Positions 6,243 to 46,361 of a DNA stretch of 64,000 bases are shown here, one piece after another. Where the stretch lies: the NCBI GenBank assembly GCA_963662655.2, contig CAXXTU010000002.1, positions 2,400,001-2,464,000 on the forward strand, written 5' to 3'. Under the pieces are notes generated by a model that saw only the letters and a list, made by a program, of their open reading frames with translations, did no database searches and was not told the DNA's origin. The position numbers and the translations under genes are program-made. The stretch's first letter is position 1; each line of letters starts with the position of its first letter. The DNA comes from Candidatus Cloacimonadales bacterium. GTDB lineage: Bacteria > Cloacimonadota > Cloacimonadia > Cloacimonadales > JAIOQZ01.

Positions 6243-6380
6243 CTTTTCCTCCTTGATTGGTTGTAGGGCATCCATGCTGCTCATAAGACATTTGTCTTAT
6301 ATAGCAGTGGTTTGGCAATCTGCTATATTACCTAGGGTTAACCAAACCAATCAAAAGAAAGGAGACTATAACATCGCTCG
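6243..6380 (-). promoter_or_regulatory. structured flagellin leader with CsrA-type GGA hairpin and anti-SD segment
   Basis: GCATGGATGC hairpin (6268-6277); TTGATTGGTT complementary to AACCAATCAA next to the SD; two further hairpins. Confidence 0.6.
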
Positions 6381-7340: not shown

Positions 7341-7343
7341 CAT

Positions 7344-7476
7344 TCCTCCTTGATTGGTTCTAACGGGCATCCATGCGATATAAGACAACCGTCCTATATT
7401 GCGCTACGTTAGCTTATCTGCTTGTGTGTGTTTCGGCTAAACCAAACCAATCTATGAGGCAAAATCAGTCTCCTAA
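7344..7476 (-). promoter_or_regulatory. structured flagellin leader homologous to 6243-6380
   Basis: GATTGGTTTGGTT...TATAGGAC-ggtt-GTCTTATA...GCATGGATGC (7367-7376)...AACCAATCAAGGAGGA. Confidence 0.6.
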
Positions 7477-8436: not shown

Positions 8437-8620
8437 TATTTCCTCCTTGAAGATGCATTTTTCATCCTTGTGGCTACGATTAACCTTGGCCTGCTGTTGG
8501 AGCTGCTGTTGTGCCAGCTAACAAGTTTCTCATCACATTATGTTCTTGTGAAAGATCCTGGAATTCTCGAGCGAATTCGTTAAACGCTTTTGTTAAAGGT
8601 CGTGGGAGTTGCTTGCGACG

Positions 8621-8646
8621 TTATCGATCAATCTCTATTTTACTTA
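8621..8646 (-). promoter_or_regulatory. possible sigma28 (FliA) promoter
   Basis: TAAG-N14-ATCGATAA versus consensus TAAA-N15-GCCGATAA, upstream of the flagellin at 8436. Confidence 0.4.
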
Positions 8647-8668
8647 CTAATAAAACGGACCGATCAGG

Positions 8669-9631: not shown

Positions 9632-9757
9632 TTTCATCCTCCTTGATGTTCATTAGGCATCCTTGCCTTGGGTCTTTTTTTTTAAGGTAAAATTGATTGC
9701 TGCGTTAGGGGTAGGGTGATAAATTTGCGGTTGATACGAGAGGCGACTTCTCAGCCG

Positions 9758-11702: not shown

Positions 11703-12914
11703 ATGAAATTCTCCTTTTCCGCCGAATTACAGAAAATTCCTGACTATATACAAGGCGTTGACCGGGTATCCGAGGTGCGCACCATTATCGCTTCCAACGA
11801 GAATTACCGCCAGGAAGCCAGGCGCAAGCTGGAGGAATTCCTTCTGAAGATGATCGAGGTCGAGGCGTCGGATATCGACCTCGGCGGCGAAGGCGCACAA
11901 AACAAAGTGTGGTACAGAATCTTCGGCGACAAACGCAGGCACCCCGATTACGATTACATCGCCAGAGACGATTCCACCGCGCTGATATGCAGCATCATGA
12001 CCGAGCGCCAGATGGACGGCATCATGATCAGCCACAACTCCGACTTCTCATACAGGATTTTCGTCGGAGACATGCAGTACCGTTATCGCGCGGACGCCTA
12101 CATCGATATGGGGCACCTGGCCATCAACTTCCGTCTGATCAATCCCACGCCGTTCGACATCTCGAACATCGGTTTCCCGGGCGTCATCGTGAACAAGTTC
12201 GATCTCCAATTCGAGAAGAAGGGCCTCATCCTCGTCACCGGAATCACCGGCTCGGGAAAGAGCACCACGCTGGACGCGATCATCAACATGAACAACATGA
12301 AGAATGAAGCGCATGTGGTGATCATCGGCTCGCCCATCGAGTATTTCCACAAATCGGCCAAGTGCATCGTGCGCCACCGCGAGGTGGGACGCGACACGAT
12401 ATCCTTCAAGGACGGAACCATCGAAGCCCTGCGCCAGGATCCCGACATCATCGTCATCGGCGAGATGCGCGATCCCGACACCATCATGACGGCGCTGGAG
12501 GTTACCGATAGCGGTCACAAGGTTTTCTCAACCCTTCATACCGGTTCCGCCGTGGAAAGCGTCCACCGTATCGTGGCGGAGTGTCCCACGGACGAACAGA
12601 ACCGCGTCCGTATGCGTCTTGGAGATGTGCTGAGCGTTGTCGTTTCGCAGAAACTCGTTCCCTCCGTCGATGGCAAACGCGTTCTCGCCAAGGAAATCCT
12701 GAATGTAACGCCATGGGTCTCCGCGGCGATCATGAACAACAACATATCGGAAATCTACCAGATGATCAACGAGGGAAAAGAATACGGAATGATCACGCTG
12801 GAGCAAGACCTGATGCGTCTGTATGTAACCAAGAAAATAACCAAGGAGACGGCAATCTCCCACGCAAACCAGAAAAAAAGAATTGTCGAATTGATGAACT
12901 ATTACAGGAAATAA
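11703..12914 (+). CDS. pilT: PilT/PilU-family type IV pilus retraction ATPase
   Basis: GLILVTGITGSGKSTT, ALRQDPDIIVIGEMRD, SGHKVFSTLHT, VVSQKLV. Confidence 0.88.
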   Translation: MKFSFSAELQKIPDYIQGVDRVSEVRTIIASNENYRQEARRKLEEFLLKMIEVEASDIDLGGEGAQNKVWYRIFGDKRRHPDYDYIARDDSTALICSIMTERQMDGIMISHNSDFSYRIFVGDMQYRYRADAYIDMGHLAINFRLINPTPFDISNIGFPGVIVNKFDLQFEKKGLILVTGITGSGKSTTLDAIINMNNMKNEAHVVIIGSPIEYFHKSAKCIVRHREVGRDTISFKDGTIEALRQDPDIIVIGEMRDPDTIMTALEVTDSGHKVFSTLHTGSAVESVHRIVAECPTDEQNRVRMRLGDVLSVVVSQKLVPSVDGKRVLAKEILNVTPWVSAAIMNNNISEIYQMINEGKEYGMITLEQDLMRLYVTKKITKETAISHANQKKRIVELMNYYRK

Positions 12915-12918
12915 CTGA

Positions 12919-15126
12919 ATGGCAACAACCAACAAGATTTTTGGCGTCTATCTCGATGGCGATGAGCTGAAGGTAGCGCTTCTCTCCTGCGAAAAGGAGA
13001 TCATAACGATCGAAACCCTTTTCAAGGAGAAGCTTGTTGCCCAGGATGATAAAAAATCCGATCGTGATTTCTACGGAGCGGACTTCGCGGAAACATTCAG
13101 CGACGGCACGCACGAGCCGCCGCCCGACAGCTTCGATTTTACTCCGATGGCGAAGGGCGAAGACCTCGAGTTCGAGGAAGTCGGGGAGTTCTTTGATGAA
13201 TCCGCCGACGAAAGCCATGTAGCTCTTTCGAGAGTCGCACACGCCGTTCAGTTCACCTCGGCCCCCCTCGCACTGAATCTCGATGTCTCCAACATCAGCT
13301 ACAAGAAGATCGTGATTTCGGCCAAGACCTCCGACAAGAAGATCCTCGACAAGATAAAACGCGCATTCTACACGCCGGACGCGGTCACTATGTCCGCTTA
13401 CTCATGGTTCCAGTCCGGAGAGGATGAAATCGTCGGTATCCGTCACGAAGGATCGATGGACCTTCTGGAAAACCTGGTAACGATCAACCAGAATGAATTC
13501 GAGAACCGCTTCCAGTTCAAAGGCATCCATCCCAACGAAGTCGCGTTGATCAACTCGGTGCGCTACAATTACGAGATATTCGGCCTGGACATGACCGCGA
13601 TTTTCTACATCGGCAACGACTTTTGTCGTATCACGCTGATGCAGGGGGAAGATTTCTACCTCGAGCTCCCGATTATCAATGAAGGCTACAAGAAAGAGAA
13701 CATCCTCAACACGATCTACTCCCGCTTCCTTCTGGAGAAGGCGCACCACGATATCCCGGCGCTGAACCGCATTTTCCTCGCCGGTAACAATATCACTCAG
13801 GAGAAGATCGACTTCATCAAGGAGAAGGAGCCGGATGCGATCGTCGAAACGCTGCTGCCGGTAAACATCCTTCCAAATCCCAACAGCCCGGACGAGTACT
13901 CCGACAAGGAGCTGACGGAATATATTATTCCCATCTCGCTCGCCGCGATGCATCTCCAGCCGAAATCGCCGAAGTTCCTGAAGTCCAATTTCCTACCCAG
14001 GCAGTTGAAACATCAAAACCTGTTCTCGCTGGGGCTCACCGGTATTTTCATGATCGCCGTGATCCTGGCGACTACATTCTTCTCGATCAGCAGCATCGTC
14101 GGCTGGAAAGACAAGAACAAGATGCTCATGGTGGAGAACTCCACCGTTAAATCGCGCATCGAGTCGAACAACATCCTCATCGACTCCCTGAACGTGATCA
14201 GAAAGCGCATTGAAAACTACGAAAACAACATTTCGTGGGTCAAAAAATATATTGGAGAAGATAATCAATGGCATTATATTCTTGAAGAGGTTTCCAGTAA
14301 TTTTCTCGACCATAGTTTAAGCTGGAGCACAAACATTCATAAAGAAGAAGACCGCTTCAAGCTTGAAGGTTCTACAACCAAAAGAACCAATATCGTGGGA
14401 TTCTCCCAGATGTTTCCTTTCGGCTCGATCGAGAAGGTCGAGGAACGCCAGGTGGAAAGCTACACGGTTTGGGATTACCAGATCCTGTTCAATATGCCGG
14501 ATCCTTTGACGACGAAGATTTCCGACTCACAAAAACCGGACAGCTATATAAAGAGGTATAAAGAGAAGGCCGAGGAAGTAGCCAAGCCAAAGAAGCAAGA
14601 GAAAAAAGCGGAGAAGCCCCGTGAAGAGGAAAAGAAGCAGGAAATGCCTCAACCTCAACCGAAGCCTGATCCTGAAGCCGAAAAACCCAAAGAAGTGAAA
14701 GCGACTCCCAAAGCCGCCCCCAAGCAGGAGGAGAAGAAAACGGCTCCGAAAGAAACGCCTGTTGGAAAAGCGCTATACGATGAAGCGGTGAAACTTCATT
14801 TCGGCGGCAAGCATGCCGAAGCCGCGGTGAAATTCAAGGAATACATTGACAAGTATCGCGACAACCTTACCGTCAATGCAACCTATTTCCTTGGAGAATG
14901 TAACTATAAACTCGGGAAGCGGGAAGACGCCGAACGATTGTTCGTTAGCGTGCTGGATACCGGCAAGGCGAAAGTACCCGAAACGCTTCTGATGCTGGGC
15001 ATCCTGAACCGGGAAGACGGCAAGCTCAACATCGCTCACGAATACTGGAACGATCTCGTGCAGAGATATCCCAATAGTACGTACGCGGACATTGCACGCA
15101 AGAAGATTGCGAAATATAAACGGTAA
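12919..15126 (+). CDS. PilM-like/PilN-like fusion with Pro/Lys-rich linker and C-terminal YbgF-like TPR
   Basis: N-terminal GVYLDGDELKVALL, RIFLAG, NFLP plus a TM segment (PilN-like start), EKPK/PQP linker, terminal TPR (ATYFLGEC, YPNS). Confidence 0.6.
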   Translation: MATTNKIFGVYLDGDELKVALLSCEKEIITIETLFKEKLVAQDDKKSDRDFYGADFAETFSDGTHEPPPDSFDFTPMAKGEDLEFEEVGEFFDESADESHVALSRVAHAVQFTSAPLALNLDVSNISYKKIVISAKTSDKKILDKIKRAFYTPDAVTMSAYSWFQSGEDEIVGIRHEGSMDLLENLVTINQNEFENRFQFKGIHPNEVALINSVRYNYEIFGLDMTAIFYIGNDFCRITLMQGEDFYLELPIINEGYKKENILNTIYSRFLLEKAHHDIPALNRIFLAGNNITQEKIDFIKEKEPDAIVETLLPVNILPNPNSPDEYSDKELTEYIIPISLAAMHLQPKSPKFLKSNFLPRQLKHQNLFSLGLTGIFMIAVILATTFFSISSIVGWKDKNKMLMVENSTVKSRIESNNILIDSLNVIRKRIENYENNISWVKKYIGEDNQWHYILEEVSSNFLDHSLSWSTNIHKEEDRFKLEGSTTKRTNIVGFSQMFPFGSIEKVEERQVESYTVWDYQILFNMPDPLTTKISDSQKPDSYIKRYKEKAEEVAKPKKQEKKAEKPREEEKKQEMPQPQPKPDPEAEKPKEVKATPKAAPKQEEKKTAPKETPVGKALYDEAVKLHFGGKHAEAAVKFKEYIDKYRDNLTVNATYFLGECNYKLGKREDAERLFVSVLDTGKAKVPETLLMLGILNREDGKLNIAHEYWNDLVQRYPNSTYADIARKKIAKYKR

Positions 15127-15138
15127 CCGGACGATATT

Positions 15139-16155
15139 ATGTTAATGAAACTTCTGATTTTTGCCGTAGTTGTAGTCGTTGTGTTTCTCTTTCTGATGAT
15201 GCGTTCATCGAAGAAGAAAGGCGACGGAGGAGGAGCATCCTCACAGCCGGACGAATACATCATCGCATCATATCGTAGCGGCACGAACTACAAATTCCGT
15301 AATTTCATCATTCTCATCGTTATTTTACTCGCCGTGCTGGGCTGGTGGTTCTTCACCAACAAGAATCTCAAGAAGAACAACAAGGCCCTCACCGAAGAGA
15401 AAACAAAGCTCGAATCCGAACTGCAAGAGACGCATGGCGAGATCATGAAGAAACCGGAACTGGAAGCGCAACTCGACCGCATCCGCGAAGAGGTTTCTCT
15501 CAATAACAAGGTGATGCTCAAGGAAGATACTTCCACCAAGACGCTGGAGTACCTCTTCTACCTTGCGGATAAATACGGCGACTACATGCACTTCGATTTC
15601 GGACTCTCGGAATCGGGTGCGGACAAAGACGATCCTACGATCCGCTATAACAAGTATGTCCTCACAGGAAAGGCTTTCACCAACCAGATTTTCAGTTTTA
15701 TCGATCAATTGGAGCGGCAACCCCCGTTCTATGCTGTCGATGGGATCGCGCTGGAAGCCCTGCCGCCGGATCAGAAGGGGAAAGTGGATTTCTCCGTGGA
15801 ACTCACAGCGTATTTCACAGATAATGGAACGCCTCTCAACCGTATCGAGCTCTTCACCGGCAAATCGCGCCAGCTCGCCTACAATCCATTCTATCCACGC
15901 ATTCACTCGCCTGTCATCTCCGATGACGAAGAATTCATGCAACTCTTTGATCTGGATAACGGTACCGTTGTCGCGCTCAGCCCCGAACGCGTGTTCCTGC
16001 GCAATAACTCCTCGGGAATTATCCAGATATTCAATATTGGCGACCGCGTTCGCTATGGCTATCTCGAGAGCATCGACTGGGCAAACCAGCAGGCCGTTTT
16101 CCGGCTGAACCGTTACGGCGTTGCCGAGAGCATACGATTAGGGCTTAATCCATAA
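15139..16155 (+). CDS. PilO/PilP-like pilus alignment protein
   Basis: TM plus coiled coil, ferredoxin-like FSFIDQLE, then YNPFYP and GDRVRYGYLESID (PilP-like); lies between the PilMN-like gene and the secretin. Confidence 0.55.
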   Translation: MLMKLLIFAVVVVVVFLFLMMRSSKKKGDGGGASSQPDEYIIASYRSGTNYKFRNFIILIVILLAVLGWWFFTNKNLKKNNKALTEEKTKLESELQETHGEIMKKPELEAQLDRIREEVSLNNKVMLKEDTSTKTLEYLFYLADKYGDYMHFDFGLSESGADKDDPTIRYNKYVLTGKAFTNQIFSFIDQLERQPPFYAVDGIALEALPPDQKGKVDFSVELTAYFTDNGTPLNRIELFTGKSRQLAYNPFYPRIHSPVISDDEEFMQLFDLDNGTVVALSPERVFLRNNSSGIIQIFNIGDRVRYGYLESIDWANQQAVFRLNRYGVAESIRLGLNP

Positions 16156-16178
16156 TGAAAAGGAATAAAGGATATATC

Positions 16179-17372
16179 ATGAAATCCATGATTCAAGCAT
16201 TGATTGTGTTGAGTCTGCTGATGGTCATCATACCGGTCACAGCGCAAACAACGGGACAAACCGACGGCAAGGACCTCGTCAGCATGAGTTCCGATACCTC
16301 TTTCCAGCAAGCGCTCGGTATCCTGCAGGTTTACCTGATGCGAGAAGAAGGACGCATCTTCGTCGATCTCTCCAACACCAAGGGCGAGATCGGCATGAAG
16401 ATCGACAAGCTTCACTGGAAAGCGGCCATGATCAGCATTTTCACCGCCAAGGGATTGCTCTGGGAAGAAACATACAACGCCGTTTTGATCAGGAAACCCG
16501 ATGATTCGAAAGCCGGAGCACGTAAATCCGGTTCCGGCGCTACCGTTTCCGCGGCGCCCGTTGATGTGTCCAGGGACGAAGTGCTCATCGAAGTCACCTT
16601 CTTCGAAGCGGATCGCAACGCGCTCAGCGAAGTCGGTATCGATTGGACATCCCTTTCCGACGGCAAGGTCAACTTCTCCGCCAATCTGAACTCCTCGGAT
16701 CAGGTTACGGAAGACATCCTTTCCATCGCCGTCAACGAAACATGGAAAATCGGCTCTGGAACCATCGATCTGGTAACCCTTTTCGAGGTATTCGAAGCCA
16801 ACGACGAAGGCAGCGTGATATCACGCCAGCAGATAACGGTTACTTCCGGTGAAGAAGGCCAGGTGCTCGACGGCATGGAATTCTCCATCAAGTCGATTGA
16901 CGAATCCGGTAATACGACGGACAACTTCTACAAAGCCGGTACAATTGTAACCGTAACGCCAAACGTGCGAACGGAAGTTTCCGGCAACAAATTCATCGAG
17001 CTCGAAGTCAGCACGGAACGTAGCTCTGCCGAACCAGGCGCAGTCAGCACCATCGTCACGAAATCGAGCGCTAACACGAAGAAGATCCTTTACAACGGTG
17101 AAGAGGCCGTTATCGGCGGACTCACCAGCAAGGAGACTGCCGAAGTCCGCAAGGGTATCCCTTTCCTGAAGGACCTGCCGTGGTGGGTTCTCGGTATTCG
17201 CTACCTCACTGGCTACAACAGCCACCAGACCAAGACGAAGGAACTCCTGATCATCCTCAAGGCCACGATTATCCCCAACCTACAGGAACGCCAGGAAGCC
17301 AAGCCGGAGCTGAACGAAGACATCAACCGCATCAGAAAGGAAATTCCCAAGCTGGAAAAACAGCTTGAATAG
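16179..17372 (+). CDS. secretin (PilQ/GspD family), short form
   Basis: Signal peptide, VLIEVTFFE, GIDW, GEEAVIGGL, KGIPFLKDLP, ELLIILKATII. Confidence 0.85.
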   Translation: MKSMIQALIVLSLLMVIIPVTAQTTGQTDGKDLVSMSSDTSFQQALGILQVYLMREEGRIFVDLSNTKGEIGMKIDKLHWKAAMISIFTAKGLLWEETYNAVLIRKPDDSKAGARKSGSGATVSAAPVDVSRDEVLIEVTFFEADRNALSEVGIDWTSLSDGKVNFSANLNSSDQVTEDILSIAVNETWKIGSGTIDLVTLFEVFEANDEGSVISRQQITVTSGEEGQVLDGMEFSIKSIDESGNTTDNFYKAGTIVTVTPNVRTEVSGNKFIELEVSTERSSAEPGAVSTIVTKSSANTKKILYNGEEAVIGGLTSKETAEVRKGIPFLKDLPWWVLGIRYLTGYNSHQTKTKELLIILKATIIPNLQERQEAKPELNEDINRIRKEIPKLEKQLE

Positions 17373-17389
17373 ATCGCTAAGATTATCAG

Positions 17390-17422
17390 AAAAGCCGGAT
17401 CGAGTGTCCGGCTTTTTTTTTT
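17390..17422 (+). terminator. intrinsic terminator
   Basis: AAAAGCCGGA...TCCGGCTTTTTTTTTT. Confidence 0.85.
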
Positions 17423-17499
17423 CTCTTGTCGACCAGTGCTTTAATGAATCTGCAATGTCCCCTTCGGACAGAATGTTATGAAAATGTAAGTGAATATCC

Positions 17500-17770
17500 G
17501 TTTATAATGCGGCTTTCCCCATCATTACTTTTCTTAGAATTTGCTTTGTGGACTTAGGAGTTATACACAAAAGTAATTTGTGAGAAGTTTCTCATAATCA
17601 ATTGCCCCAGTACAAGTTACGGATTCGGAAAATATTTCCGGCAAAGTTATCCACAGGTTATCCACACAGCGAATTCACGTATTTTCAGGCAGTTGGAAAA
17701 TTATCGGCCCTTCACACTATCCACACACTCTCGTGGATAAATCACGTGTTCTTCACATAAGTTTTTACAA
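17500..17770. other. DnaA-box cluster, probable replication origin (oriC)
   Basis: TTATACACA 17561-17569; TTATCCACA 17647-17655 and 17658-17666; CTATCCACA 17717-17725; CGTGGATAA 17732-17740; TTCTTCACA 17749-17757; AT-rich gap between convergent genes. Confidence 0.75.
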
Positions 17771-17803
17771 TCCGGGGAACGTCCTCGAAAGAAACGAAAT
17801 CCA

Positions 17804-18979
17804 CTAATCATCCGCGTGAAACTTCTCGAGGAACTGAAGCCAGCCACTTGAGCTAAAGTGAAGGTTCTCGTAGTCCGTCTTGAGATTATCGAGAATGACG
17901 GGATTGTCGGGGAACCATATCGTGCCGGTGGCCACGACGCTGTCCGGACAATTGTATTGATCGCTATGATAGAACAAATCGTCGATGTTCAGAAGGACCT
18001 CGTCGACATCCTGAATGAGGCCCGGAACGGTTGCCTGCTTTCTCAGTTCCGTGAAGAACTGCCTGATATCGATATCTTGCATCACCGAGCCGTACTCGTC
18101 GCAGCTCTCTCGTGCAAACATGAATGGCGCAGTGTTCGCGGAATCTATCCAGGTTTTGACAAACTGATTGATCCTGTATTTCAGTGTGTAGTAGTCTTCG
18201 TTGTAAGCTGCCGAGCACATGATTTTAAGATTGCTTCCTTCCTGGCTACCGCCCGGACGATACGAATCGACGTACTGGTCGACGATTGCCGAAGCGATGT
18301 CGCGGGAACTCGAATTGGAATTCCAGATTTCCAGGACTTCCTTGAATGGAAAGCCATCCCACGGGATTTCTTCTTCAGATCCGATGATGTAATCCGCTTT
18401 TCCGGCTGTCTCCCCGATCACCTCGACACCCTGCATCAGGCAGGCATCGAAAATGAGGATGTCCATCTTGTTCAACAGAGCTACCATCGCTCGTTCCAAG
18501 TCCCCGTTCCGGACGCCGATCTCGTTGTTGCTCTCATCATCGAAACAGATATCGCGCTGGGCCCCGTCACGGTACCAGGAATCTCCGTGCGACCAGATGA
18601 TCAGCGCGTAGTTCCTTGCAGGATAGCTTCGGATTGTAGAATTCACGAATCCACTCAGCTCGCCCCAATCTCCGCTATCGATCTCGCCGAGGGTGCTGAT
18701 CACATCCGATTTGATTTCCGGTGATTCATCATGTAGAATCCGGTATTTTTTTGCCCGTGAGTCTTCACTGTAAATACTCCAGTCCACGAGCGCGATGACT
18801 CGAACATCTTCCGTGAAAACGGCAGATTCCATCTCGTTGATATCGACAACTGCCTGCTCGGAGAGGTTGTTGTCCGCCGCCATGTATACCATGACAGTCC
18901 AATCGGAGACGCGCCTGTTGTCGTCATCGCATGCCGCGAGAAGAAGCAATACACACAGTAATATCAAAATCTGTTTCAC
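17804..18979 (-). CDS. clostripain-family (C11) cysteine peptidase lipoprotein
   Basis: Lipobox LAAC, WTVMVYMAADNNL, IIWSHGDSW (catalytic His), FDACLM (catalytic Cys); GTG start after GGAGG. Confidence 0.9.
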   Translation of the reverse strand: MKQILILLCVLLLLAACDDDNRRVSDWTVMVYMAADNNLSEQAVVDINEMESAVFTEDVRVIALVDWSIYSEDSRAKKYRILHDESPEIKSDVISTLGEIDSGDWGELSGFVNSTIRSYPARNYALIIWSHGDSWYRDGAQRDICFDDESNNEIGVRNGDLERAMVALLNKMDILIFDACLMQGVEVIGETAGKADYIIGSEEEIPWDGFPFKEVLEIWNSNSSSRDIASAIVDQYVDSYRPGGSQEGSNLKIMCSAAYNEDYYTLKYRINQFVKTWIDSANTAPFMFARESCDEYGSVMQDIDIRQFFTELRKQATVPGLIQDVDEVLLNIDDLFYHSDQYNCPDSVVATGTIWFPDNPVILDNLKTDYENLHFSSSGWLQFLEKFHADD

Positions 18980-19152
18980 AGTTCCTCCATGAATTTCACA
19001 TTCAAGAATCCGCAAGCATGTGTCAAGAATTCATGTTAACGAACCTGTCAAATGAGCCGTACTCGCAAGATTAATTTGTTTTTTCCTTGTCAGGAGAAGC
19101 ATTATCGATGGTAATGTCAATAATGATACGCACCAGGATGGAAACAGATTAT

Positions 19153-20697
19153 ATGAATAAAGAATTGCGTGACTCGGCGTTAGAGGCTGTGAGAGATCAT
19201 CTTCTGACAGCTCGGAACTATAAAGGCAACAAGCAGTTCGACGATGCAATCCATGCATTCTCGCAAGCCTGGGAAATTGCTAAGAATAATCGGCTGTTCG
19301 ATGAAATGCAAGAGATGATTCCCTCTTTCGCTTCGGCGTATTACGAATCGAATCGCTTCGAGGATGCAATCGAATTTCACTACGAAGTTCTCCAGTTTGC
19401 TATCGAACAAGAAGACGTAAGCCTGCAAGCAAGGATGTACACCGGACTCGGAGCCCTTCACTGGCAATTGCGAGAGTTCGAGAAATCGTACGAAGTCCTT
19501 CTCAAAGGGAAAGAGGCATGCGAGGCCACAAACGATGACGAGATGCTGCTCAACGTCCTTTCCAACCTCGCGCTGGTTCAGGCTTCTATCAACAACTACG
19601 AGCAGAGTCTCGCATACTACCGGCAAGCGTTTGCGCTGGCTGAAAAACTGGACGATCCCGATATCATCATGACCGCCTGCCTCAACTTGCAGGGCTTGTA
19701 CTACAACATGGGAGATTACAAGCGATCGAGAGACTTTGGCGAAAAGGGATTGAAAATTGCCCGAAAAGAGAAGAATGAGACTGCGATTTCCGGATTCGTC
19801 AACAACATGGGAAACATACACACGAAGCTCGGAGAGCACGAAGATGCACTTATGTGCTACCAGGAAGCTCTTGCACTCCTGGATGAGCGATATTCCAAGA
19901 AAAACTGGCTTGCGAACTCCTATCTGAACGTCGGACTTGCTCTGGTCAATCTCAAACGGCACGATGAGGGCGAGCCATACCTCCTCAAGGCGATCCAGAT
20001 CAGCAAGCTGGAACCAAAGCTTTGCCAGGAATCTCTGGCGCGTGCCGAAGGGAACCTGACAGATATCTTCATCCACCGCAATCAATACGATGAGGCGGAG
20101 AAAATTCTCGAGAAACTCATTCCGAATCTGGACAACCTCGATCTGGGTAAGAACCGCCTGCACTTCATGCGCTCGTACGCCGAAATACTTTTGAAACAGA
20201 AGAAGTACGACAAAGCCTTCGAGATATACAACCTCGCTCTGGATAAGACCATCGAGCAGTATGACGAGAAGCTGGCAGAGGAATTGGCCAAAACACAGAT
20301 TCTGTTCGATCACGACATCAAGGTTCGAGAGGCGAATCTGCTACGCCAGAAGAACATGGAGCTCGAGAAGAAAAACAACGAGCTGGAAGAAGCCCTCGAA
20401 TCACTGAATAAAGCGCACGAAACGATCCGTGAGCTCGAGCGCAGGAACACGATTTACGCCATGTCCGTCACAACCAACCACGAACTCAGCCAACCCCTCA
20501 TGATCATCCGGGGAAACCTGGATATGCTGATCAACAGCGACGCATTGGATCCAAAGAAGCAACACCATTACATCAAAAGGATTTCGGAAGGAATCGAGCG
20601 AATCGAAAAAATCCTCTTGAAATACAGAACCGCCGAGCGCAGCACGATGGATCACTACAGCGAGAACACACCCATGGTGAAGTTCGAGGAGCCGTAG
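19153..20697 (+). CDS. TPR-repeat protein with C-terminal HisKA dimerisation domain
   Basis: Multiple TPRs (NNMGNIHTKLGEHEDALMCYQEAL), coiled coil, TTNHELSQPLMIIRGNLDML H-box; start uncertain (19087-19153). Confidence 0.8.
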   Translation: MNKELRDSALEAVRDHLLTARNYKGNKQFDDAIHAFSQAWEIAKNNRLFDEMQEMIPSFASAYYESNRFEDAIEFHYEVLQFAIEQEDVSLQARMYTGLGALHWQLREFEKSYEVLLKGKEACEATNDDEMLLNVLSNLALVQASINNYEQSLAYYRQAFALAEKLDDPDIIMTACLNLQGLYYNMGDYKRSRDFGEKGLKIARKEKNETAISGFVNNMGNIHTKLGEHEDALMCYQEALALLDERYSKKNWLANSYLNVGLALVNLKRHDEGEPYLLKAIQISKLEPKLCQESLARAEGNLTDIFIHRNQYDEAEKILEKLIPNLDNLDLGKNRLHFMRSYAEILLKQKKYDKAFEIYNLALDKTIEQYDEKLAEELAKTQILFDHDIKVREANLLRQKNMELEKKNNELEEALESLNKAHETIRELERRNTIYAMSVTTNHELSQPLMIIRGNLDMLINSDALDPKKQHHYIKRISEGIERIEKILLKYRTAERSTMDHYSENTPMVKFEEP

Positions 20698-20766: not shown

Positions 20767-21696
20767 GTGCATGTGATTTCAATACGTGATCTGACGAAAC
20801 GTTTTGGCGATATCACCGCTCTCGACGAGGTGACCCTCGAGATCGGGACCGGTGAAACATTCGGATTGCTGGGACCCAATGGAGCTGGAAAAACGACGCT
20901 CATCAATATACTGTGCGCTTATCTGTCGCAGGATTCCGGCGAGATATCGATCAACGGCCTGGGCCTTCCCGGCAGCGAAAGCAAGATCAAGCAGCTCCTG
21001 GGAATCGTTCCGCAGGAAGTCTCCCTGTACGAAGACCTCTCCGCGTACGAAAACCTGATCTTCTGGGGGAAGTTATACGGGCTTTCCAGGAATCCGCTTA
21101 AGGATCGCGCGGAGCAACTCCTGAAGGCAATGGGGCTTTGGGATCGCCGCAAAGACGCCGTCAAACGCTACTCGGGCGGAATGAAGCGAAGGATCAACAT
21201 CGCTGCGGGAATCATCCACGACCCTCCGATCATATTCTTCGACGAACCAACGGTGGGGGTCGATCCGCAGTCTCGCAATTTCATCTTCGAGATCATCGAA
21301 GAGATGCACAGGCAAGGCAAGACCATTATATACACCTCACATTACATGGAAGAAGTCGAGCGTCTCTGCACGCGCGTGGGCATCATCGACCACGGGAATC
21401 TGATCGCGCTCGGAACGCGCCAGGAGCTTTATAAAGAGCTTGGCGAAGACGACCACATCAAGATAAGGCTCAGGAATCCGATTTCTGCCGGCGATCTTGA
21501 AAACTCGCTGGGAATCAGCGTTTCAACCACTGGCGAGACGAACCTCCTGCTGCATGGAAAGAACCTGATCGGAAAGCTTTCGCTGATATTGAACACGCTT
21601 GAGCAGATGAACGCCGAGCTGGATGAAGTCAACATTGTTCAGCCCAATCTGGAGCAGGTTTTCCTGACTCTTACGGGAAGGGAGTTACGCGAATGA
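20767..21696 (+). CDS. ABC-2 transporter ATP-binding protein
   Basis: GPNGAGKTT, YSGGMKRR, FFDEPTVGVD. Confidence 0.93.
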   Translation: MHVISIRDLTKRFGDITALDEVTLEIGTGETFGLLGPNGAGKTTLINILCAYLSQDSGEISINGLGLPGSESKIKQLLGIVPQEVSLYEDLSAYENLIFWGKLYGLSRNPLKDRAEQLLKAMGLWDRRKDAVKRYSGGMKRRINIAAGIIHDPPIIFFDEPTVGVDPQSRNFIFEIIEEMHRQGKTIIYTSHYMEEVERLCTRVGIIDHGNLIALGTRQELYKELGEDDHIKIRLRNPISAGDLENSLGISVSTTGETNLLLHGKNLIGKLSLILNTLEQMNAELDEVNIVQPNLEQVFLTLTGRELRE

Positions 21697-23021
21697 GACT
21701 GTGGGCGCTGATTCAAAAAGACATCCGCATTTTCCTGAAGCATCCCGGAGCGCTGCTCCTCACGTTCATCGTTCCGATGGTTATCACGCTTATTTTCGGC
21801 ATGGTGTTCGGAGGCTTCGGCAGCAGTTCTTCCGGCATTAAAGGCATTCTGGTCGTTGGCGTTGACGAAGACCAGAGCGAGTACTCGAAGAAGCTGATGA
21901 AGTCGATTGGTGACCTGGAGGAAATCAGGCTGCAAACCGAGTACACCAAGAATGACTCCACTTTCTTTTACACAACCGATCTGATGAACGAGCATATCAA
22001 GAAAGGGAAGCGGCATATAGGTATACGGATCGCAAAGGGATTCCAGGACAGCATTAAAACTGGACTCAGGCCGCACGTCGTCATTCACTACGATCCAAAG
22101 TTTCCCATCGAGCAGGGAATCGTCAACGGGCTGTTGCAGAGAACCGTTTTCATGCAAATGCCCGACCTGATGCAGGAGCAGCTCTTCAAGCAAGCCGACG
22201 AATATCTGGGAGTCGAGCGCGGACAGGGATTTCGCACTGATCTGCTGAGCACCTTGCAAGATTACTTCGGAACGGAAGTGAGATCGCTTGAAATTCCCAC
22301 GACCAGCTCGTTCACCGAATCCGATTCTGCCGAGGCGGAAGGGGAAAGGTTCGGAATGGGAGATATCGCCCCCATACGGATCCGATCGCACCAGCTTCTG
22401 GGCGTGGATGTGGAAAACCCGATGTTTGCTCAATCTGTAGCCGGAGTGGCGGTCATGTTCCTGCTGTTCTCCGTTAGCGGGGCTGCGTCCTCGCTTCTGG
22501 CGGAGAAAAGCGACGGAACGATCAAGCGTCTGATGATCTCTCCCGCTCAAAGCAGTGAGATTCTCTGGAGCAAGGCCATCTTCATCATGCTGATCGGTAT
22601 ATTCCAATTGGTCGTTATGTTCCTCTTCGGATGGATCGTGTTCAAGCTGGATATCTTCAAGGATGTACCGGCCCTGCTGGTCATGATTTTCTCTACCGCG
22701 ATCTCCTGCTCAACGCTTGGAATGCTGCTTGCCGCAGCGTGCAAGAGTCAGAAGCAGGTCGACGAGCTTTCAACGCTCCTGATTCTGGGAATGAGCGCTC
22801 TGGGCGGATCGATGTTCCCGAGCTTCATCATCCCTTCCTACCTGCAAGTCATTGGAAGATTCACACTCAACCACTGGGCGATGGCAGGTTTTACCAATAT
22901 CTTCTGGCGCGATATGACGCTGGTCGACATCCTCCCGCAAGCTGGCGTTTTAATAGGAGCGTCCGTTGTCTTCCTCGCGATCGCACACTGGCTCTTCAAG
23001 AAGAAGCTGTTCACAGACTGA
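21693..23021 (+). CDS. ABC-2 transporter permease
   Basis: N-terminal TM, large periplasmic loop, EKSDGTIKRLMISP, several C-terminal TMs. Confidence 0.9.
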   Translation: MRLWALIQKDIRIFLKHPGALLLTFIVPMVITLIFGMVFGGFGSSSSGIKGILVVGVDEDQSEYSKKLMKSIGDLEEIRLQTEYTKNDSTFFYTTDLMNEHIKKGKRHIGIRIAKGFQDSIKTGLRPHVVIHYDPKFPIEQGIVNGLLQRTVFMQMPDLMQEQLFKQADEYLGVERGQGFRTDLLSTLQDYFGTEVRSLEIPTTSSFTESDSAEAEGERFGMGDIAPIRIRSHQLLGVDVENPMFAQSVAGVAVMFLLFSVSGAASSLLAEKSDGTIKRLMISPAQSSEILWSKAIFIMLIGIFQLVVMFLFGWIVFKLDIFKDVPALLVMIFSTAISCSTLGMLLAAACKSQKQVDELSTLLILGMSALGGSMFPSFIIPSYLQVIGRFTLNHWAMAGFTNIFWRDMTLVDILPQAGVLIGASVVFLAIAHWLFKKKLFTD

Positions 23022-23031
23022 TAGCCTAAAT

Positions 23032-23165
23032 GCTGAGGCGTGAGTAGATTGGTTTGATCGCTACTCCCAGCATGGTGTTACACGTCATTTTTTCGCGTTC
23101 GATAGTCCAGATGACGTGTTATATCCATGTTGGGAGTAGCGATCGAGCGAAGGTACCACGCCGGT
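23032..23165 (+). ncRNA. rod-like structured repeat element, copy A
   Basis: Long imperfect hairpin homologous to 35118-35304 with compensatory changes. Confidence 0.6.
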
Positions 23166-23184: not shown

Positions 23185-23213
23185 GAAAAACGGCAGCCCT
23201 GCGACTGCCGTTT
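23185..23213 (-). terminator. intrinsic terminator
   Basis: AAACGGCAG...CTGCCGTTT stem with a T run on the minus strand, after the stop at 23233. Confidence 0.7.
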
Positions 23214-32967: not shown

Positions 32968-35033
32968 ATGCTATGGGACAGAAAAAAAATCAGTATTCTT
33001 CTCCTGATGTGCCTTACGATTGCCTTCATGCACGCCCGAAACTACACAGGAAGGCTTTACGTCGAAGTGAAGATGAAGGAGCTCTATCGCAACGGAAGCT
33101 TGGAGAGAAAACACGAAATAAACCGAAATGCTCCCTCAATGGAGTCACAACTTGTGTATCTCTACTTCGAGAAGAAACCGAATGACACTTTTTTATCCGG
33201 CTTGAAGAAAGCGGATGTCGAGGTTTTCGAGAACTCCTGGCGTCCTCCGAACGCGAGACATCCCTGGGGATATTACACAGCCAGAATCCCTGCGGCGCTC
33301 TCGATGCTGAAACAACTGGATGCATTCCCGCAAATCAGGGAAATCCGTACCGCCGAGGGGCAAAACCAGCTCTATAACGACAGAGGTCGGCTTGAGACAG
33401 GCGCCGAGATTCTTCAGGGAGATTCCTGGGGACTGGACGGCGAAAGTGTGCGCATCGGTATCATCGATTCCGGATTCGAAGTCGCGAGTCTCGATCTCAA
33501 TCAGCCGGAAGCGGGGATTGATTACAGCGCATATCCCGATAGCGATTACACGATATCCAACGCAAACACGGGAACCGGGCACGGAACGCACGTCGCCGGT
33601 TCGATCCTCGGCCTGGGCGTGAACTCGAACAGCGTATGGCGGGGAATGGCTCCCGGGGCGGAATGGTGCGCTTACAAAGTCATGACGGACTACACGCATC
33701 TGATCACGGACGCGGCGCTCAATCAGTCATACTGGACGGCATGGTACCGGCACAACTGTGACATGCTCAACGTAAGCATCGGAGGATGGGACAATTATCA
33801 CGACGGCTCAGGAGCTCTGGAGCAGGTTATCGATCAGATTTCCGAGGACGGGTGTGTTGTTTTCCAGTCGGCTGGAAACGAAGGCAACGACGACCGTCAC
33901 GCGATGGGCACGCTCGCGGGAGGCAGTTCGGAGTTTGTCGCGATAAACATACCGGATACCACGTCCAATCGTGGAACCTATCTGATCAACCTTGTTTGGT
34001 ATGATAGTCCCGACACCACGATTCAGCGCCCTATGACGCTGAGTTTTTACAATGAGGAGATGGAACCCATCAACCAGATATGGCAGGACATCGACGACAT
34101 GACGCAATCTCCCCGTGGAACGCAATCCCGTTGGGGATCCGTTATTCGTAACGGAGACAATCCATTTTTCGTGAAGGTAGAGAACCAATCGGGCGTCACC
34201 ATGGATTACCACCTCTTCAGCATGAGCAGCGGAGCGAAATTCGTGGAACCGGACACCTCCTGCACCATCTCGTCGCCGGCTGTTGCAGACCTCGTTGTAT
34301 CGGTTGGCTCATGGACCACGCGCAATCGTTGGCATACATGGAATCACCTCGTTGCCTGGACGGACGAAGTCATTGGTGAATGCTCGCCATTCTCATCTCG
34401 TGGGCCTCGCGTTGACGGAACCCAAAAGCCTGAACTGAGCGCTCCGGGAAGCTACATTATCTCCATCCGGGACGACGATGCATGGGGTTGGCCTTTCGGG
34501 CTCTGGACAACTGCCGTGATCAGTAACGCATACGCGGAAGGAGACTCGACGGGAGGTCTACCGGCAGATTACATCATCCTGCACGGCACCTCCATGTCAT
34601 CACCCATCACATGTGGGGCAGCTGCGCTCATCAAGCAATACGAACCCGAAATATCCCGCGACGAGCTGGTCGTGCTTCTCCAAAACCACGCACGGCTGGA
34701 TGAATTCACCGGAGATTTACCCAACGAGAAATCGGTTTCGGGAAAGTCGATGTGGAAGCTGCTCTATTAGCGCTCGTCGGAGACCAAACGCCGGCTCAAG
34801 TCCAAAACATTACCCTCGAAATCTCCGATGGGAATATCGTCTTGAACTGGGACGCCGTTCAACAATCGATCAACGGTGCCCCCATTTCAACCGATGGCTA
34901 CAGGATTTTCGCGTCCACGATCCCTTACGCCCCCACTTGGAACGAACTCGGAGAAACATCGCAAACGACCTTCTCCGTTCCTGTTAACTCTGGCTACAGG
35001 TTCTTTATAATCACCTGCTTAAATAACCCATAA
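32968..35033 (+). pseudogene. S8 serine peptidase, frameshifted near 34732 (pseudogene or sequence error)
   Basis: IGIIDSG, GHGTHVAG, GTSMSSP. After PNEK the conserved GFGKVDVEAAL continues in another frame into the 34752-35033 ORF. Confidence 0.8.
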
Positions 35034-35072: not shown

Positions 35073-35107
35073 GAAAAAGGTCGCGAATTTCTTTCGCGAC
35101 CTTTTTC
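35073..35107 (+). terminator. intrinsic terminator (bidirectional)
   Basis: GAAAAAGGTCGCGAA-tttct-TTCGCGACCTTTTTC. Confidence 0.85.
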
Positions 35108-35117
35108 ACACTCGCTC

Positions 35118-35304
35118 GCAGAGGTGTGAGCAGATTCGTTCCATCCGCCTCCCAACGGGGTGTTTCACAGCTATTTTCGGCTTTGACGCAGTTAAAACGA
35201 AAACCTGAACGTTGTGATTTCGTTCCTCGAAATCATGTTAGTGGGAAAATAGGCTGTGGTATATCCCCGTTGGGAGGCGGATCGGGCGAAGATGCCACAC
35301 CGGT
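35118..35304 (+). ncRNA. rod-like structured repeat element, copy B
   Basis: 18-bp perfect stem ATCCGCCTCCCAACGGGG/CCCCGTTGGGAGGCGGAT with extensions; homologous to 23032-23165. Confidence 0.6.
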
Positions 35305-35423
35305 ATGCCATCGACTGAAAACCTGAATCTTCTCGAGGAAGCTACCTACCCAAAATGATTTCCTTGCCGCGTGCGATCAAAGTTTTATTGTTGGTACAGA
35401 ATTTTCTACAGGGGATTTGCAGC

Positions 35424-38312
35424 ATGGAAATGCAGGAATTGAAAAAATGGTATGGCAAGGTAAAATTCGGAGAGGATAACTTCTATCGTCTCATGCAAAA
35501 CCGCGTGCGGGAAATCCTGCTCGTCGCGACATTCTACGACGCCTTTATCTTCGAGCAGGACGGCAGACTATCGGAGCAGATATACAACGAATATCGCCAA
35601 CTCCAGCTCAGCACCGCCCCACGCATCACAAGCGTTCCCACTGGTAAACAAGCGCTCGAAATGCTGAATATACGCCAGTTTGACCTTGTGATCATCATGA
35701 TGAGAACCGGAGACGTAGGCCCCTTCGAGCTCTCCCGGGAAGCAAAGATGCTCTATCCCGAACTCCCCGTCCTCCTGCTGCTTAACGTCCAGTCAGATAT
35801 CGAAATTATCCAGCGTTACCCCGAACGCTTGCAATACATCGACGATGTTTTCCTGTGGAATGGTGATACATCCATCTTCCTCGCCATGATCAAATCAGTG
35901 GAAGACAAGCTCAACATCGAGCACGACACCAAGCAGGGATTGATCCGCGTTATCCTTCTGGTGGAAGACTCTATCCTCTACTATTCCAGATTCCTGCCAC
36001 TCCTCTACAAGCTGATCCTCCGCCAGACCGGCAGGCTTATTGAAGACGAACTGAGCGACATCGATAAACGCCTTCGTATGCGTGCCCGACCAAAGGTAAT
36101 CCTGTCGCACACCTACGAAGACGCCGAGAAGATGGTGGAGAAATACCACGACAACCTGGTCGCAGTTATCTCGGATGTCCGTTACCCACGCAATGGCATA
36201 TTGGACGGCAACTCGGGCTTCGATCTGATCCGCCTGGTGAAAAACGACCCCTTCGATATTCCGGTTATCATGCAGTCCTCAGAACCGGAAAATGAAGTTA
36301 TCGCCAAACAACTCGGGGCCGATTTCCTCTCCAAAAACTCCCCGACATTGCTCGACGATTTGCAGCACATCACCATCCGCGACCTCGGATACGGCGATTT
36401 CATCTTCCGCAACCAGCATGGTCACGAGATCGGCCGCGCATCCAATATCGTCGAATTCGAAAAACGCTTGCAGGAAGTACCCGACGAGACGCTTGTATAT
36501 CATGGTATGAGAAACCATTTCAGCGCCTGGCTCATCGCCCACGGGGACATCGACCTCGCAAGGCAGATACAGCCGATAAAAGTCGGCGATTTCTCTGACA
36601 GACAGCGCATGAGAGATTATCTGCGGGATATCTTCCACGTCGCGCGGACATACCGCGACCGGGGTAAAATCGTTCCCTTCGCACCCTACAAGATTGATGA
36701 CAAAGACCAGATCCTCCGTCTCGCCGATGGATCGCTGGGAGGAAAAGGACGTGGACTCGCCTTCATGAACGCGATCCTTGCGGTTACCGACATCTCGTCC
36801 AAGTATGAGAACCTCGATATCCGCCTACCCCTGACAATGATTATCGGCACCTCCGAGTTCGACCGGCTTGTCGAACAGGCTGAAATCGAAGATTCCATGC
36901 ACGAGGAAGAAATCCGGTGCTCCATCATCAATAGCGAGCTCTCCCCGGAGCTTATGGATAACCTTCGCTCGATCGTCGAAAACATAGACGAACCGCTGGC
37001 CGTACGATCCTCCGGCTTGCTCGAGGATTCCCAGGCAATACCCGTGGCGGGAATCTATAAAACCTGCATGATCCCTAATTCACATCCCGACAGGGATATC
37101 CGTCTCAAGCAACTTGTCTCCGCGATCAAGCAGGTCTTTTCATCCGTTTTCACTGCAACGACGCATAAATATTTACACAGCCTGCATTACCGCTTCGAAG
37201 AAGAGAAAATGGCAATCATCATCCAGAAGGTTGCGGGGCAAAACCACGGCAGCTACTTCTATCCAGCCCTGACAGGCTTTATACAATCGTGGAACAGGAC
37301 GCTCTGCACGACCCAAAGGAACGCCGACGGAATCGTTGCTTGCGTTGCGGGACTGAGCAGCGATGACGATCGAACCGCTCCCCATTTCTTCTTCGTTCCG
37401 GAGAAAACCGACAGGCAAATCGACTGTCGCGAATTCCCCTGCAACCGTTTCCAGGCAATCGACCGTTCTCCCAATAACCTCTCGGCGGAATCCTCCGAAA
37501 TCAGGATGATGGAACTCGACTGCGATCTGTACGCCTACAAACAACGCCTTAACTGCATCGAGAAAGACGGAAAGCCGTATTTGAACGCCCAATCCTTCAT
37601 CGAGCAGAACAACATCGCCAACGCGCTTTCGGACATCCTTAAGCTCGGGAAAAAGGCCCTCGGAATGCACACGGAAATCGAGTTCGCGGTTGACATCCCC
37701 AACGATCCGAATCGGAAAAACGTCCTATACATCTTGCAGATTCGCCCGATGCCGATTTTCAATGAAGAATCACCCATCGATGTGGAGACTCTACAGGAAA
37801 GCGACATCATTATCTCAACGCCCAACAGCGTTGGGAACGGCATTTACACACCCGTGCGGGATATCGTGTATTTACCGGAAGATCAGATCGACAATGTAAG
37901 GGAGGAGGATCTCAAGGAGCTGAATCAAGCGCTTGACGAAGACTATATCCTGATCATTCCATCCAGCTGGAGCAGCCGTTTTGATAGGAAACTTCCGCTC
38001 CTTCAATGGGTTGACATCGATCGAGTCCGCCTGATTGTCGAGATCGCCCCGCGCCCCATCGAAGCGCCGAGAAACAGGCACTTCATCCACAACCTTATCG
38101 CCATGAACGCAGGTTTCGCGACCGTCTCCTCCGATCAATCGAACACCGTGTTCAAGGAAAATCTCATTCGGGTATCGCCCATGGTTCGCAGATTCGGCGC
38201 GTTCGAGTTGCATCGTTTCATCGATCCCCTGGCAATTATCCTCGACGGCAGACACGGCTCCCTCACCGTGTGCAAGTTCCATCCGGAGAGCGTTGGAGCG
38301 TCGAAAAGTTGA
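35424..38312 (+). CDS. receiver-domain / PEP-pyruvate-binding (PPDK N-terminal, ATP-grasp) protein
   Basis: ILLVEDS, VISDVRYP receiver-like domains; GSLGGKGRGLAF, PLAVRSSGLLEDS, EEKMAIIIQ, EIEFAV, ILQIRPM. Confidence 0.85.
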   Translation: MEMQELKKWYGKVKFGEDNFYRLMQNRVREILLVATFYDAFIFEQDGRLSEQIYNEYRQLQLSTAPRITSVPTGKQALEMLNIRQFDLVIIMMRTGDVGPFELSREAKMLYPELPVLLLLNVQSDIEIIQRYPERLQYIDDVFLWNGDTSIFLAMIKSVEDKLNIEHDTKQGLIRVILLVEDSILYYSRFLPLLYKLILRQTGRLIEDELSDIDKRLRMRARPKVILSHTYEDAEKMVEKYHDNLVAVISDVRYPRNGILDGNSGFDLIRLVKNDPFDIPVIMQSSEPENEVIAKQLGADFLSKNSPTLLDDLQHITIRDLGYGDFIFRNQHGHEIGRASNIVEFEKRLQEVPDETLVYHGMRNHFSAWLIAHGDIDLARQIQPIKVGDFSDRQRMRDYLRDIFHVARTYRDRGKIVPFAPYKIDDKDQILRLADGSLGGKGRGLAFMNAILAVTDISSKYENLDIRLPLTMIIGTSEFDRLVEQAEIEDSMHEEEIRCSIINSELSPELMDNLRSIVENIDEPLAVRSSGLLEDSQAIPVAGIYKTCMIPNSHPDRDIRLKQLVSAIKQVFSSVFTATTHKYLHSLHYRFEEEKMAIIIQKVAGQNHGSYFYPALTGFIQSWNRTLCTTQRNADGIVACVAGLSSDDDRTAPHFFFVPEKTDRQIDCREFPCNRFQAIDRSPNNLSAESSEIRMMELDCDLYAYKQRLNCIEKDGKPYLNAQSFIEQNNIANALSDILKLGKKALGMHTEIEFAVDIPNDPNRKNVLYILQIRPMPIFNEESPIDVETLQESDIIISTPNSVGNGIYTPVRDIVYLPEDQIDNVREEDLKELNQALDEDYILIIPSSWSSRFDRKLPLLQWVDIDRVRLIVEIAPRPIEAPRNRHFIHNLIAMNAGFATVSSDQSNTVFKENLIRVSPMVRRFGAFELHRFIDPLAIILDGRHGSLTVCKFHPESVGASKS

Positions 38313-46257: not shown

Positions 46258-46361
46258 CAGAGATATTTTACGTGTGGAGAATACTAACGATCCGCAAACA
46301 CGATTTCGCAAAGCGAAATCACAACGCTCATGAATTCGTTTTCACTTCGTGAAAGCCGAAT

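Follow-up and report, generated by a model that had tools for sequence, protein, structure and literature searches.

Short palindromic repeats that are dispersed through bacterial genomes have been described in several systems. Those of the REP, BIME and REPIN type are short, intergenic, multicopy and lineage-restricted hairpins, enriched after and between convergent genes, which form mosaics with other repeats and are presumed to serve as single-stranded DNA (ssDNA) substrates (PMC3116915, PMC6006769, PMC3733652). REPs of the CGTC type are described as being without a known enzyme, and palindromic repeats lacking an enzyme are known more generally (PMC3733652). The attC sites of integrons, such as VCR, are described as single-strand hairpins recognised by their structure; they have extrahelical bases, are unpaired in the middle, vary at the apex and conserve little of the stem, and their folded strand lies mostly on the template of the leading strand; within sedentary integrons, the attC bottom strands were found on the leading template, where excision is lower, in 25 of 30 cases (PMC5371416). 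The ends of IS200/IS605 elements and the MITEs derived from them form imperfect hairpins on one strand, lack a target duplication and have an orientation tied to replication (PMC6006769, PMC3971601), IS608 using the lagging-strand template (PMC6006769). Finally, helix 45 of 23S rRNA is a known site of intervening sequences (IVS; PMC4990558).

The repeat described here was noticed in a window of 64,000 nucleotides, i.e., the whole stretch of DNA that was analysed, from a Cloacimonadales genome (G000). It probably works like the REPIN and attC hairpins and belongs to neither. As for REPs, its copies are extragenic, multicopy and enriched in convergent gaps, but the REP/REPIN tag is lacking, GTAG occurring in 4 and 1 and CGTC in 0 and 4 of 124 copies on the two strands. 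Moreover, its arms are not two small palindromes but form a single long rod whose stems vary freely and which contains three non-canonical modules, no RAYT gene flanked by the repeat was found, G000 is without Y1 transposase, and the element has a strong replichore polarity. It shares with attC a folded strand that lies mostly on the leading-strand template, but not the RYYYAAC/GTTRRRY cores (GTTRRRY was observed at 2 and 0 of 124 ends), and neither direct-repeat arrays nor cassettes nor a recognised integron integrase accompany the copies, which are scattered over both replichores by housekeeping genes. Target-site duplications (TSDs) and conserved perfect terminal inverted repeats, the marks of DDE-type MITEs (ERIC, Correia, RUP), are absent. 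Compared with IS200/IS605, there is one rod of 100–180 nt instead of two end hairpins of 20–25 nt, no TnpA/TnpB parent was found, and the polarity, with the folded strand on the leading template, is opposite to that of IS608. Last, a probable relative of the element fills most of the interior of a 207–243-nt insertion at helix 45 of 23S rRNA in another family, f12, whereas the G000 copies are intergenic and the 23S rRNA of G000 itself has a plain short helix.

Anatomy of the element and its copies in the window

The preliminary description reported two homologous copies 12 kb apart. Both are present at the places given there, but they do not make up a two-copy family, as 124 clear copies were found genome-wide. 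Copy A (23035–23165, + strand) is a full rod-shaped element of the common short-apex form, with the arms as quoted in that description, and its closest paralogue is C2:2254946–2255078 (92% identity). Copy B (35121–35304, + strand) is the same element in its long form, as found with covariance models R1, built from 41 copies, and R2, built from 23 short forms. An ABC-2 permease gene (21693–23021, +) ends 13 nt before A, and a terminator-like hairpin (23188–23213, −), separate from the element, lies between A and the convergent gene; no sigma-70 promoter was called in A. A terminator-like inverted repeat with A/T tails (35074–35106), seen by eye and not called by the scan, is located just 5' of B, and a gene with PPDK_N and receiver domains (35355–38312, +) starts 50 nt after B. 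No clean skip of A or B was observed in the assembled contigs of one study, and the contig joints between A and B, which either carried the loops of other copies or had short sides, were read as paralogue cross-mapping. In the same region, one extra T at position 34731 was present in the contigs of all three sequencing runs, so the window probably has a one-base assembly error there, splitting a subtilase gene (32968–34770) from a short continuation (34752–35033). Four flagellin genes lie in tandem elsewhere in the window (5283–9637, −).

Read from the base, the element consists of a variable stem of 5–7 bp, a bulged A, three pairs, a tandem G.A, a 7-bp helix, a variable mid-stem, an upper motif and a variable apex. 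In copy A (all positions on the + strand), the 5' strand of the basal module, with the variable basal stem, the bulged A, the 3 bp, the tandem G.A and the 7-bp helix with its tandem T.G wobbles, occupies 23037–23056 and pairs with 23143–23162; the 3' strand together with the 3' end of the element (..CACGCC-GGT) spans 23143–23165. Strand X of the upper motif (TGG-TGTT-N-CAC, 23072–23083), 30 nt above the tandem G.A, faces strand Y (GTG-N'-TATAT-CCA, 23116–23128) with a T.T mismatch, a G.T pair and a bulged T. The apical-loop motif TTCGATAG is found at 23098–23105, and its YCGR palindrome is kept in the family variants.

These boxes are the fixed part of the fold. GA was present on the 5' side of the tandem G.A in 102 and on the 3' side in 103 of the 124 copies, and the tandem T.G wobbles (TT/GG) of the 7-bp helix in 97. 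TGTT-N-CAC stands opposite GTG-N'-TATAT in the upper motif, and among the 112 copies that could be parsed (12 could not), N and N' pair, as Watson–Crick or T.G, in 112 of 112, while the distance from the tandem G.A to the upper motif is 30 nt in 80 and 28–31 nt in all. Parsed short-apex copies carry TTCGA (26), CTCGA (11) or TCCGG (6) as apical motif. Beyond the tandem G.A, conservation falls off after about 12 nt in both directions.

The apex varies in length, as had been noted, and B is indeed long; its long apex, however, is a separate two-hairpin repeat module (35174–35245, +) nested in the element. This module gave 27 hits inside elements and 25 outside, some of them in tandem arrays. Free modules (e.g., G000:C2 606542–606878, 772290–772608 and 2346930–2347084) are often located at most 10 nt from a stop codon, and the one in the window (46302–46358, −) directly adjoins, on the 3' side, the stop of a peptidase C10 gene with a T9SS/FlgD-type C-terminus.

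RNA folding gave −79.4 kcal/mol for A on the + strand (z −11.0 against shuffles) and −60.1 on the − strand, and −102.4 (z −9.7) and −91.5 kcal/mol, respectively, for B. For A, the + strand, which is the better-folding (G.T) strand, is also the lagging-strand sequence at its locus. The preference for pairing on the + strand pointed out in the preliminary description was thus found in both copies, but such a G-U/G-T asymmetry cannot separate RNA from ssDNA.

The compensatory pairs quoted for A and B are real and extend to the family. In the alignment of 41 copies, 94% of the cells pair, 34 of the 40 pairs change on both sides, and 279 two-sided cells were counted versus 77 ± 8 after shuffling (0 of 500 shuffles) and 34–56 in slid controls. 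Between the members of the 22 closest copy pairs, 36 of 1128 paired positions changed on both sides, compared with 5.8 expected; pairing persisted at 29 of these 36, it was disrupted by 49 single changes, and the basal stem differs even between closest copies. In copies without the mid-loop, one arm is usually the exact complement of the other, and in two copies the basal 5' arm was overwritten by the complement of the other arm. Template switching between inverted repeats is described as giving such an arm-to-exact-complement pattern (PMC8604942), and part of the covariation looks like copying of one arm onto the other or swaps of modules between copies. The earlier proposal that the structure is under selection therefore holds in so far as a one-strand structure is maintained; because of this arm copying and module swapping, the covariation need not mean selection on each copy. 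Covariation searches, in addition, cannot distinguish ssDNA from RNA (PMC5737381).

Distribution, turnover and orientation relative to replication

Iterated profile searches with the two arms identified 131 paired loci in G000, of which 124 scored at least 40 bits (120 on the chromosome contig and 4 on C1); the total is about 140 when unpaired, broken or diverged copies are counted. None of the 124 clear copies lies within a gene called by our own ORF caller. Of these, 54 are found in convergent and 10 in divergent gaps; between tandem genes, 39 are antisense and 21 sense. For 93 of 124 copies, the gene downstream is directed towards the element, and the flanking genes are ordinary housekeeping genes. 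Convergent gaps are enriched, 51 of 155 being occupied versus 56 of 636 tandem gaps, a result that also fits an effect on transcript ends. The identity of a copy to its nearest neighbour has a median of 0.80 and a maximum of 0.93; without any pair above 93%, very recent spread is not indicated.

The covariance-model scan of the genome and its relatives suggested in the preliminary description revealed the family in the three congeners of G000. R1 matched 32 sites in G001 (38 with six added by a second model), about 58 in G003 and about 33 in G002, after removal of opposite-strand echoes. It gave no match in 37 other genomes of the order and none in the 148 genomes outside the genus in a phylum sample, and the element was absent on search from four other genomes of the same family as G000 (G004–G007). 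An exact-pattern scan of genome contigs returned 11 stretches, all titled Cloacimonadales, and no match was obtained when metagenome, viral, plasmid and phage collections were scanned by pattern or by BLAST. Nothing reached the Rfam gathering score within the window, and 16 other copies searched together with B gave sub-threshold hairpin matches only (the best being mraW, 33.7 bits versus a cut-off of 50), in agreement with the earlier statement that no recognised family is matched. We found no description of the family in the literature; the supplementary motif lists of PMC5737381 and PMC3733652 may hold related non-Rfam families. The repeat family is thus real, genus-centred and apparently undescribed, and its replication polarity, presented below, is unusually clean.

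The element turns over between congeners, and its copy number varies about four-fold within the genus. For six sites filled in G003, the corresponding gap of G002 or G001 was empty of the element or held other repeats, and 10 of 30 G002 loci were without a counterpart among the G003 loci examined. At 11 paired G003/G002 sites, 24 two-sided changes were counted in 501 pairs; at one G003/G002 site the upper stem had been exchanged for that of another subfamily, and at two the long form in one species corresponded to the short form in the other, with the same flanks. Copies may be nested in other hairpin repeats or adjoin them, and in the congeners the element often has a GTAG-type REP on one side and a different palindromic repeat on the other. 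In G000, one tail-to-tail doublet, made up of two different subfamilies, is present at both C2 2349460–2349743 and 2468377–2468655 with different outer flanks, indicating that a doublet can be moved or copied as a whole. Neither an excision joint nor a circle nor a clean empty site was found, the relatives being too diverged to define ends. A role as rearrangement hotspot was considered and rejected: synteny breaks were striking at single loci and at 22 of 26 G001 sites, but large gaps break anyway (37 of 68), and the excess vanished after gap-size matching (29/138 versus 6/49, p 0.2).

Orientation was analysed in G000 relative to dnaA (2,766,178), the skew minimum (2,767,671) and a dif-like site (796,604), the dif-like site and the DnaA boxes being searched for by motif. 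The G.T strand is the lagging-strand sequence, i.e., the leading-strand template, in 90 of the 120 chromosomal copies (p 4e-8), and in 91 of 120 if the terminus is placed by skew. In convergent and divergent gaps, where gene direction gives no asymmetry, 48 of 61 copies are on the lagging sequence (p 8e-6), and in tandem gaps the G.T strand is the sense strand in 21 of 56 (three of the 120 copies were not assigned to a gap class). The polarity is close to absolute in G001, whose replichores were drawn from dnaA at 1,657,407 and the skew of 60 sampled pieces: 31 of 32 sites are on the lagging sequence, or 37 of 38 with the six second-model sites. Local skew agreed with this polarity at 22 of 28 loci in G003 and 6 of 7 in G002. 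Wrong-way G000 copies were more often found in locally inverted codon skew than the others (12/30 versus 5/90 over 5 kb, 8/30 versus 2/90 over 15 kb); later inversions thus explain some, but not most, of them. Broken copies were in the minority orientation in 3 of 5 cases, a sample too small to be informative. Two other hairpin repeats of G000 showed no replichore bias (39/76 and 26/41). The orientation of the element therefore follows replication and not transcription.

The first of these two other repeats is a dispersed family with 76 motif matches (e.g., C2 71304, 725691 and 1290669), which begins with a long perfect hairpin of fully variable sequence, followed by a C(GNA)G mini-hairpin and a fixed GC-rich 3' motif, in a genome without a Y1 gene. 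The second is a GTCATCC-type palindrome with 41 motif matches (e.g., C2 55009, 448161 and 885403), and a stop-broken GIY-YIG gene lies beside one of its copies, near C2 885,100–885,400.

Single-stranded DNA or structured RNA

The headline of the preliminary description, a candidate new class of non-coding RNA, is not supported, as the orientation tracks replication rather than transcription and the loop motifs are of the DNA type. A GNA x GNA internal loop is present in the mid-stem of 43 of 112 copies, with any base as N on the 5' side, and resembles the sheared-G.A zipper known in DNA (PMC11014236). The short forms are capped by C(GAA)G triloops. Among the congener short forms with a nine-nt apex, a hand count gave a GNA triloop in 37 of 39, 36 of them closed by C-G, in a set of related copies from which the regular expression took only matching ones. 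GNA mini-hairpins are described as very stable in DNA and far less so in RNA (76.5 versus 39.0 °C for the GAAA form), and as occurring at phage and plasmid priming sites (PMC13037366). In 36 of the 46 short or flipped copies matched by regular expression, the two arms have exchanged the strands of the upper motif, which would agree better with a distortion recognised by a protein than with a tertiary core of RNA. Scanning of the apices revealed no GNRA tetraloop. RNA, too, can contain tandem G.A and 3x3 purine loops. The G.T strand was the more stable one with RNA parameters in 122 of 124 copies (median advantage 14 kcal/mol) and with DNA parameters in 116 of 124 (median advantage 4 kcal/mol).

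A structured RNA made from the G.T strand, either a multicopy sRNA or a portable mRNA 3'-end or protein-binding element, would agree with the strong covariation, with the greater stability of this strand as RNA, with the enrichment of copies in convergent gaps near gene ends, and with the position of A, 13 nt past the stop codon of a gene whose sense strand it shares. We nevertheless consider it unlikely. The orientation follows the replichore and not the neighbouring gene, being sense in only 21 of 56 tandem gaps, and a transcript would run head-on to replication in 75–97% of the copies. In addition, the flanks are without conserved promoter or terminator, the GAA triloops are of the DNA type, and the probable relative within 23S rRNA lies antisense to the rRNA.

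The mostly shared orientation relative to replication, together with the apparently ssDNA-type folding, indicates that the family is probably mobile DNA rather than a new RNA. Our best reading, to which we give a probability of roughly 0.65, is a non-autonomous, fork-coupled mobile ssDNA repeat of about 100–180 nt with a putative enzyme acting in trans; a substrate of a single-strand mobility enzyme had been the third option of the preliminary description. The element would act as a folded single strand, and the putative enzyme, HUH- or tyrosine-recombinase-like, would recognise the distorted boxes and not the stem sequence, and would copy or excise the element at replication forks. The polarity may arise by insertion on the nascent lagging strand or the leading template or, alternatively, by elimination of those copies that have their folded strand on the exposed lagging template, in the manner of the attC sites of sedentary integrons; the same polarity data fit an insertion bias or a survivor bias. 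The stems would drift freely and be re-paired by arm-to-arm template switching and conversion between copies, and only copies with intact boxes would keep spreading. Several observations count against a mobile ssDNA repeat: no mobiliser emerged from any test, no copies are more than 93% identical, a quarter of the G000 copies are reversed, the advantage of the G.T strand is larger with RNA parameters, and the polarity is opposite to that of IS608-type insertion.

Candidate enzymes, other explanations and a probable distant relative in 23S rRNA

The flanks and the neighbouring genes, which the preliminary description had singled out for TSDs and a linked RAYT or TnpA gene, yielded neither. No TSD was present in the flanks, whose direct and inverted matches equalled those of shuffled pairings, and no Y1 gene was linked to the element in G000 or at the Y1 loci of the family. 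G000 gave no PF01797 match, and a custom Y1 profile detected only a phosphoglycerate-kinase artefact. No copy lies within 1.5 kb of any of the 20 Y1 loci of the family (from 22 matches), most of which, where inspected, carry their own, different repeats. In G003 and G001 (L157, L158), a gene encoding a 137-aa Y1 transposase lies between two genes that we labelled, by inference, Xer-like and DinB-like; classical GTAG REPs come after it, and G002 and G000 lack the Y1 gene at this position.

The search for a Y2 transposase gave no match in 8 genomes, the control genomes being equally without match. The sole reverse transcriptase gene of G000 (G000:C2 981049–982608, L110), Abi-like by our reading, is interrupted by a stop codon; no reverse transcriptase was matched in G001, and no copy was found beside the reverse transcriptase loci of G002 or G003. 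Copies were likewise absent from GIY-YIG and DUF559 loci, and from tyrosine-recombinase loci except for one gene in G000, called Xer-like from its length and sequence, which abuts a copy. This neighbourhood was taken as chance. The Xer orthologues of the congeners have no copy within 1.5 kb. Reading by eye of the flanking genes up to 330 aa in G000, and of the congener flanking ORFs without G000 homologue, revealed no linked candidate mobiliser. ISL3 was rejected as a source: 3 of 13 ISL3 copies are within 70 nt of an element, and the ends are unrelated. G000 contains 13 ISL3-like and 8 IS3-like copies (two in the window, at 48644–49941 and 55212–56509), as well as about four copies of a Mu-like prophage gene set (C1 ~11900–20600; C2 ~483000–509500, ~2730000–2758000 and ~3290000–3317000), the labels being partly derived from sequence.

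A domesticated polar chromosome signal, i.e., a host-selected hairpin on the leading template for fork restart, priming or helicase loading, would account for the near-absolute polarity in G001 and for a box spacing fixed at 30 nt. It would also be in line with the conservation of pairing at orthologous sites in the presence of two-sided changes, and with the GNA mini-hairpins reported at phage and plasmid priming sites (PMC13037366). A host signal of this kind is difficult to reconcile with the four-fold variation in copy number within the genus, with sites that are often empty in congeners, and with the absence of the element from four other genomes of the family and, by R1, from 148 other genomes of the phylum, and we regard it as rather improbable. 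Furthermore, the DnaA-box-like TGTTNCACA varies (CGC/TGC variants), whereas oriC uses TTATCCACA; DnaA-box/ABC-primosome and dif-like readings were discarded, since the motif is not kept across variants.

Still less probable are attC-like sites that would shuffle neighbouring genes through a tyrosine recombinase. The architecture is parallel, with two boxes, an unpaired middle, a variable apex and a folded strand on the leading template (PMC5371416), the downstream gene mostly points into the element, and one copy abuts the Xer-like gene, but the GTTRRRY core and cassette arrays are missing, the flanking genes are ordinary, the Xer orthologues of the congeners have no copy nearby, and the excess of synteny breaks disappeared after gap-size matching. 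Leading-strand-primed retrohoming would put the folded strand on the leading template, so that the orientation observed would also result from retro-mobility, with a reverse transcriptase copying an RNA that is then inserted at forks with group II intron-like polarity. We hold this to be very improbable given that the sole reverse transcriptase of G000 is interrupted, that G001 has no reverse transcriptase match despite at least 38 copies, that no copy lies beside those of G002 or G003, and that the loops are of the DNA type.

The element has a probable distant relative in another family. R2 matched 6 of 39 genomes, among them G026 and G031 of family f12, with rough E-values of 9e-5 and 2e-6. 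The f12 hits share the bulged A, the three pairs, the tandem G.A and the 7-bp helix with T.G wobble, and the G031 hit also has the GNA x GNA loop and a GGA cap. They are located in 23S rRNA insertions of 243 nt in G031 (L379, 1465–1707) and 207 nt in G026 (L380, 1466–1672), 1174 nt into the gene, where G000 has an 18-nt helix; L400, L401 and L403 carry such insertions as well (genus g22). By its position, the insertion site is the helix-45 region. The motif strand is antisense to the rRNA, and the IVS is without ORF in the part that was read. BLAST with the f12 hairpin matched 10 of 12 f12 genomes, with up to 15 matches each, in 23S genes and in ordinary gaps. In G031, skew places all seven matches on the lagging sequence, although three of them are rRNA copies and two are incomplete; the skew of G026 is too irregular for a polarity call. 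The shared boxes suggest that the f12 element is, on balance, homologous to that of G000 and its congeners, a relationship we only infer because the f12 element has an extra 5' hairpin and is without the full upper motif.

It is conceivable, though we put this forward tentatively and with more doubt than belief, that these repeats form a Cloacimonadota superfamily of fork-coupled ssDNA elements that have a polarity opposite to that of IS608 and are recognised by their non-canonical DNA motifs (tandem G.A, GNA zipper, GAA cap), the reader being a putative enzyme outside the known Y1/Y2, integron-integrase and reverse transcriptase partners, and that one member entered helix 45 of 23S rRNA. The antisense relative found there bears on the origin of rRNA intervening sequences, and if such a superfamily exists, it would provide a traceable mobile-DNA source for part of one. 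Many palindromic repeats are without an enzyme, and there is no explanation of how they spread; in the present family, some 250 natural variants, together with the near-absolute polarity, delimit the nucleotides that the putative enzyme must read, so that it can be fished for. Strong covariation usually marks a new RNA, and this family clearly exemplifies how it points to DNA instead; the orientation relative to the replication fork offers a cheap test to separate the two.
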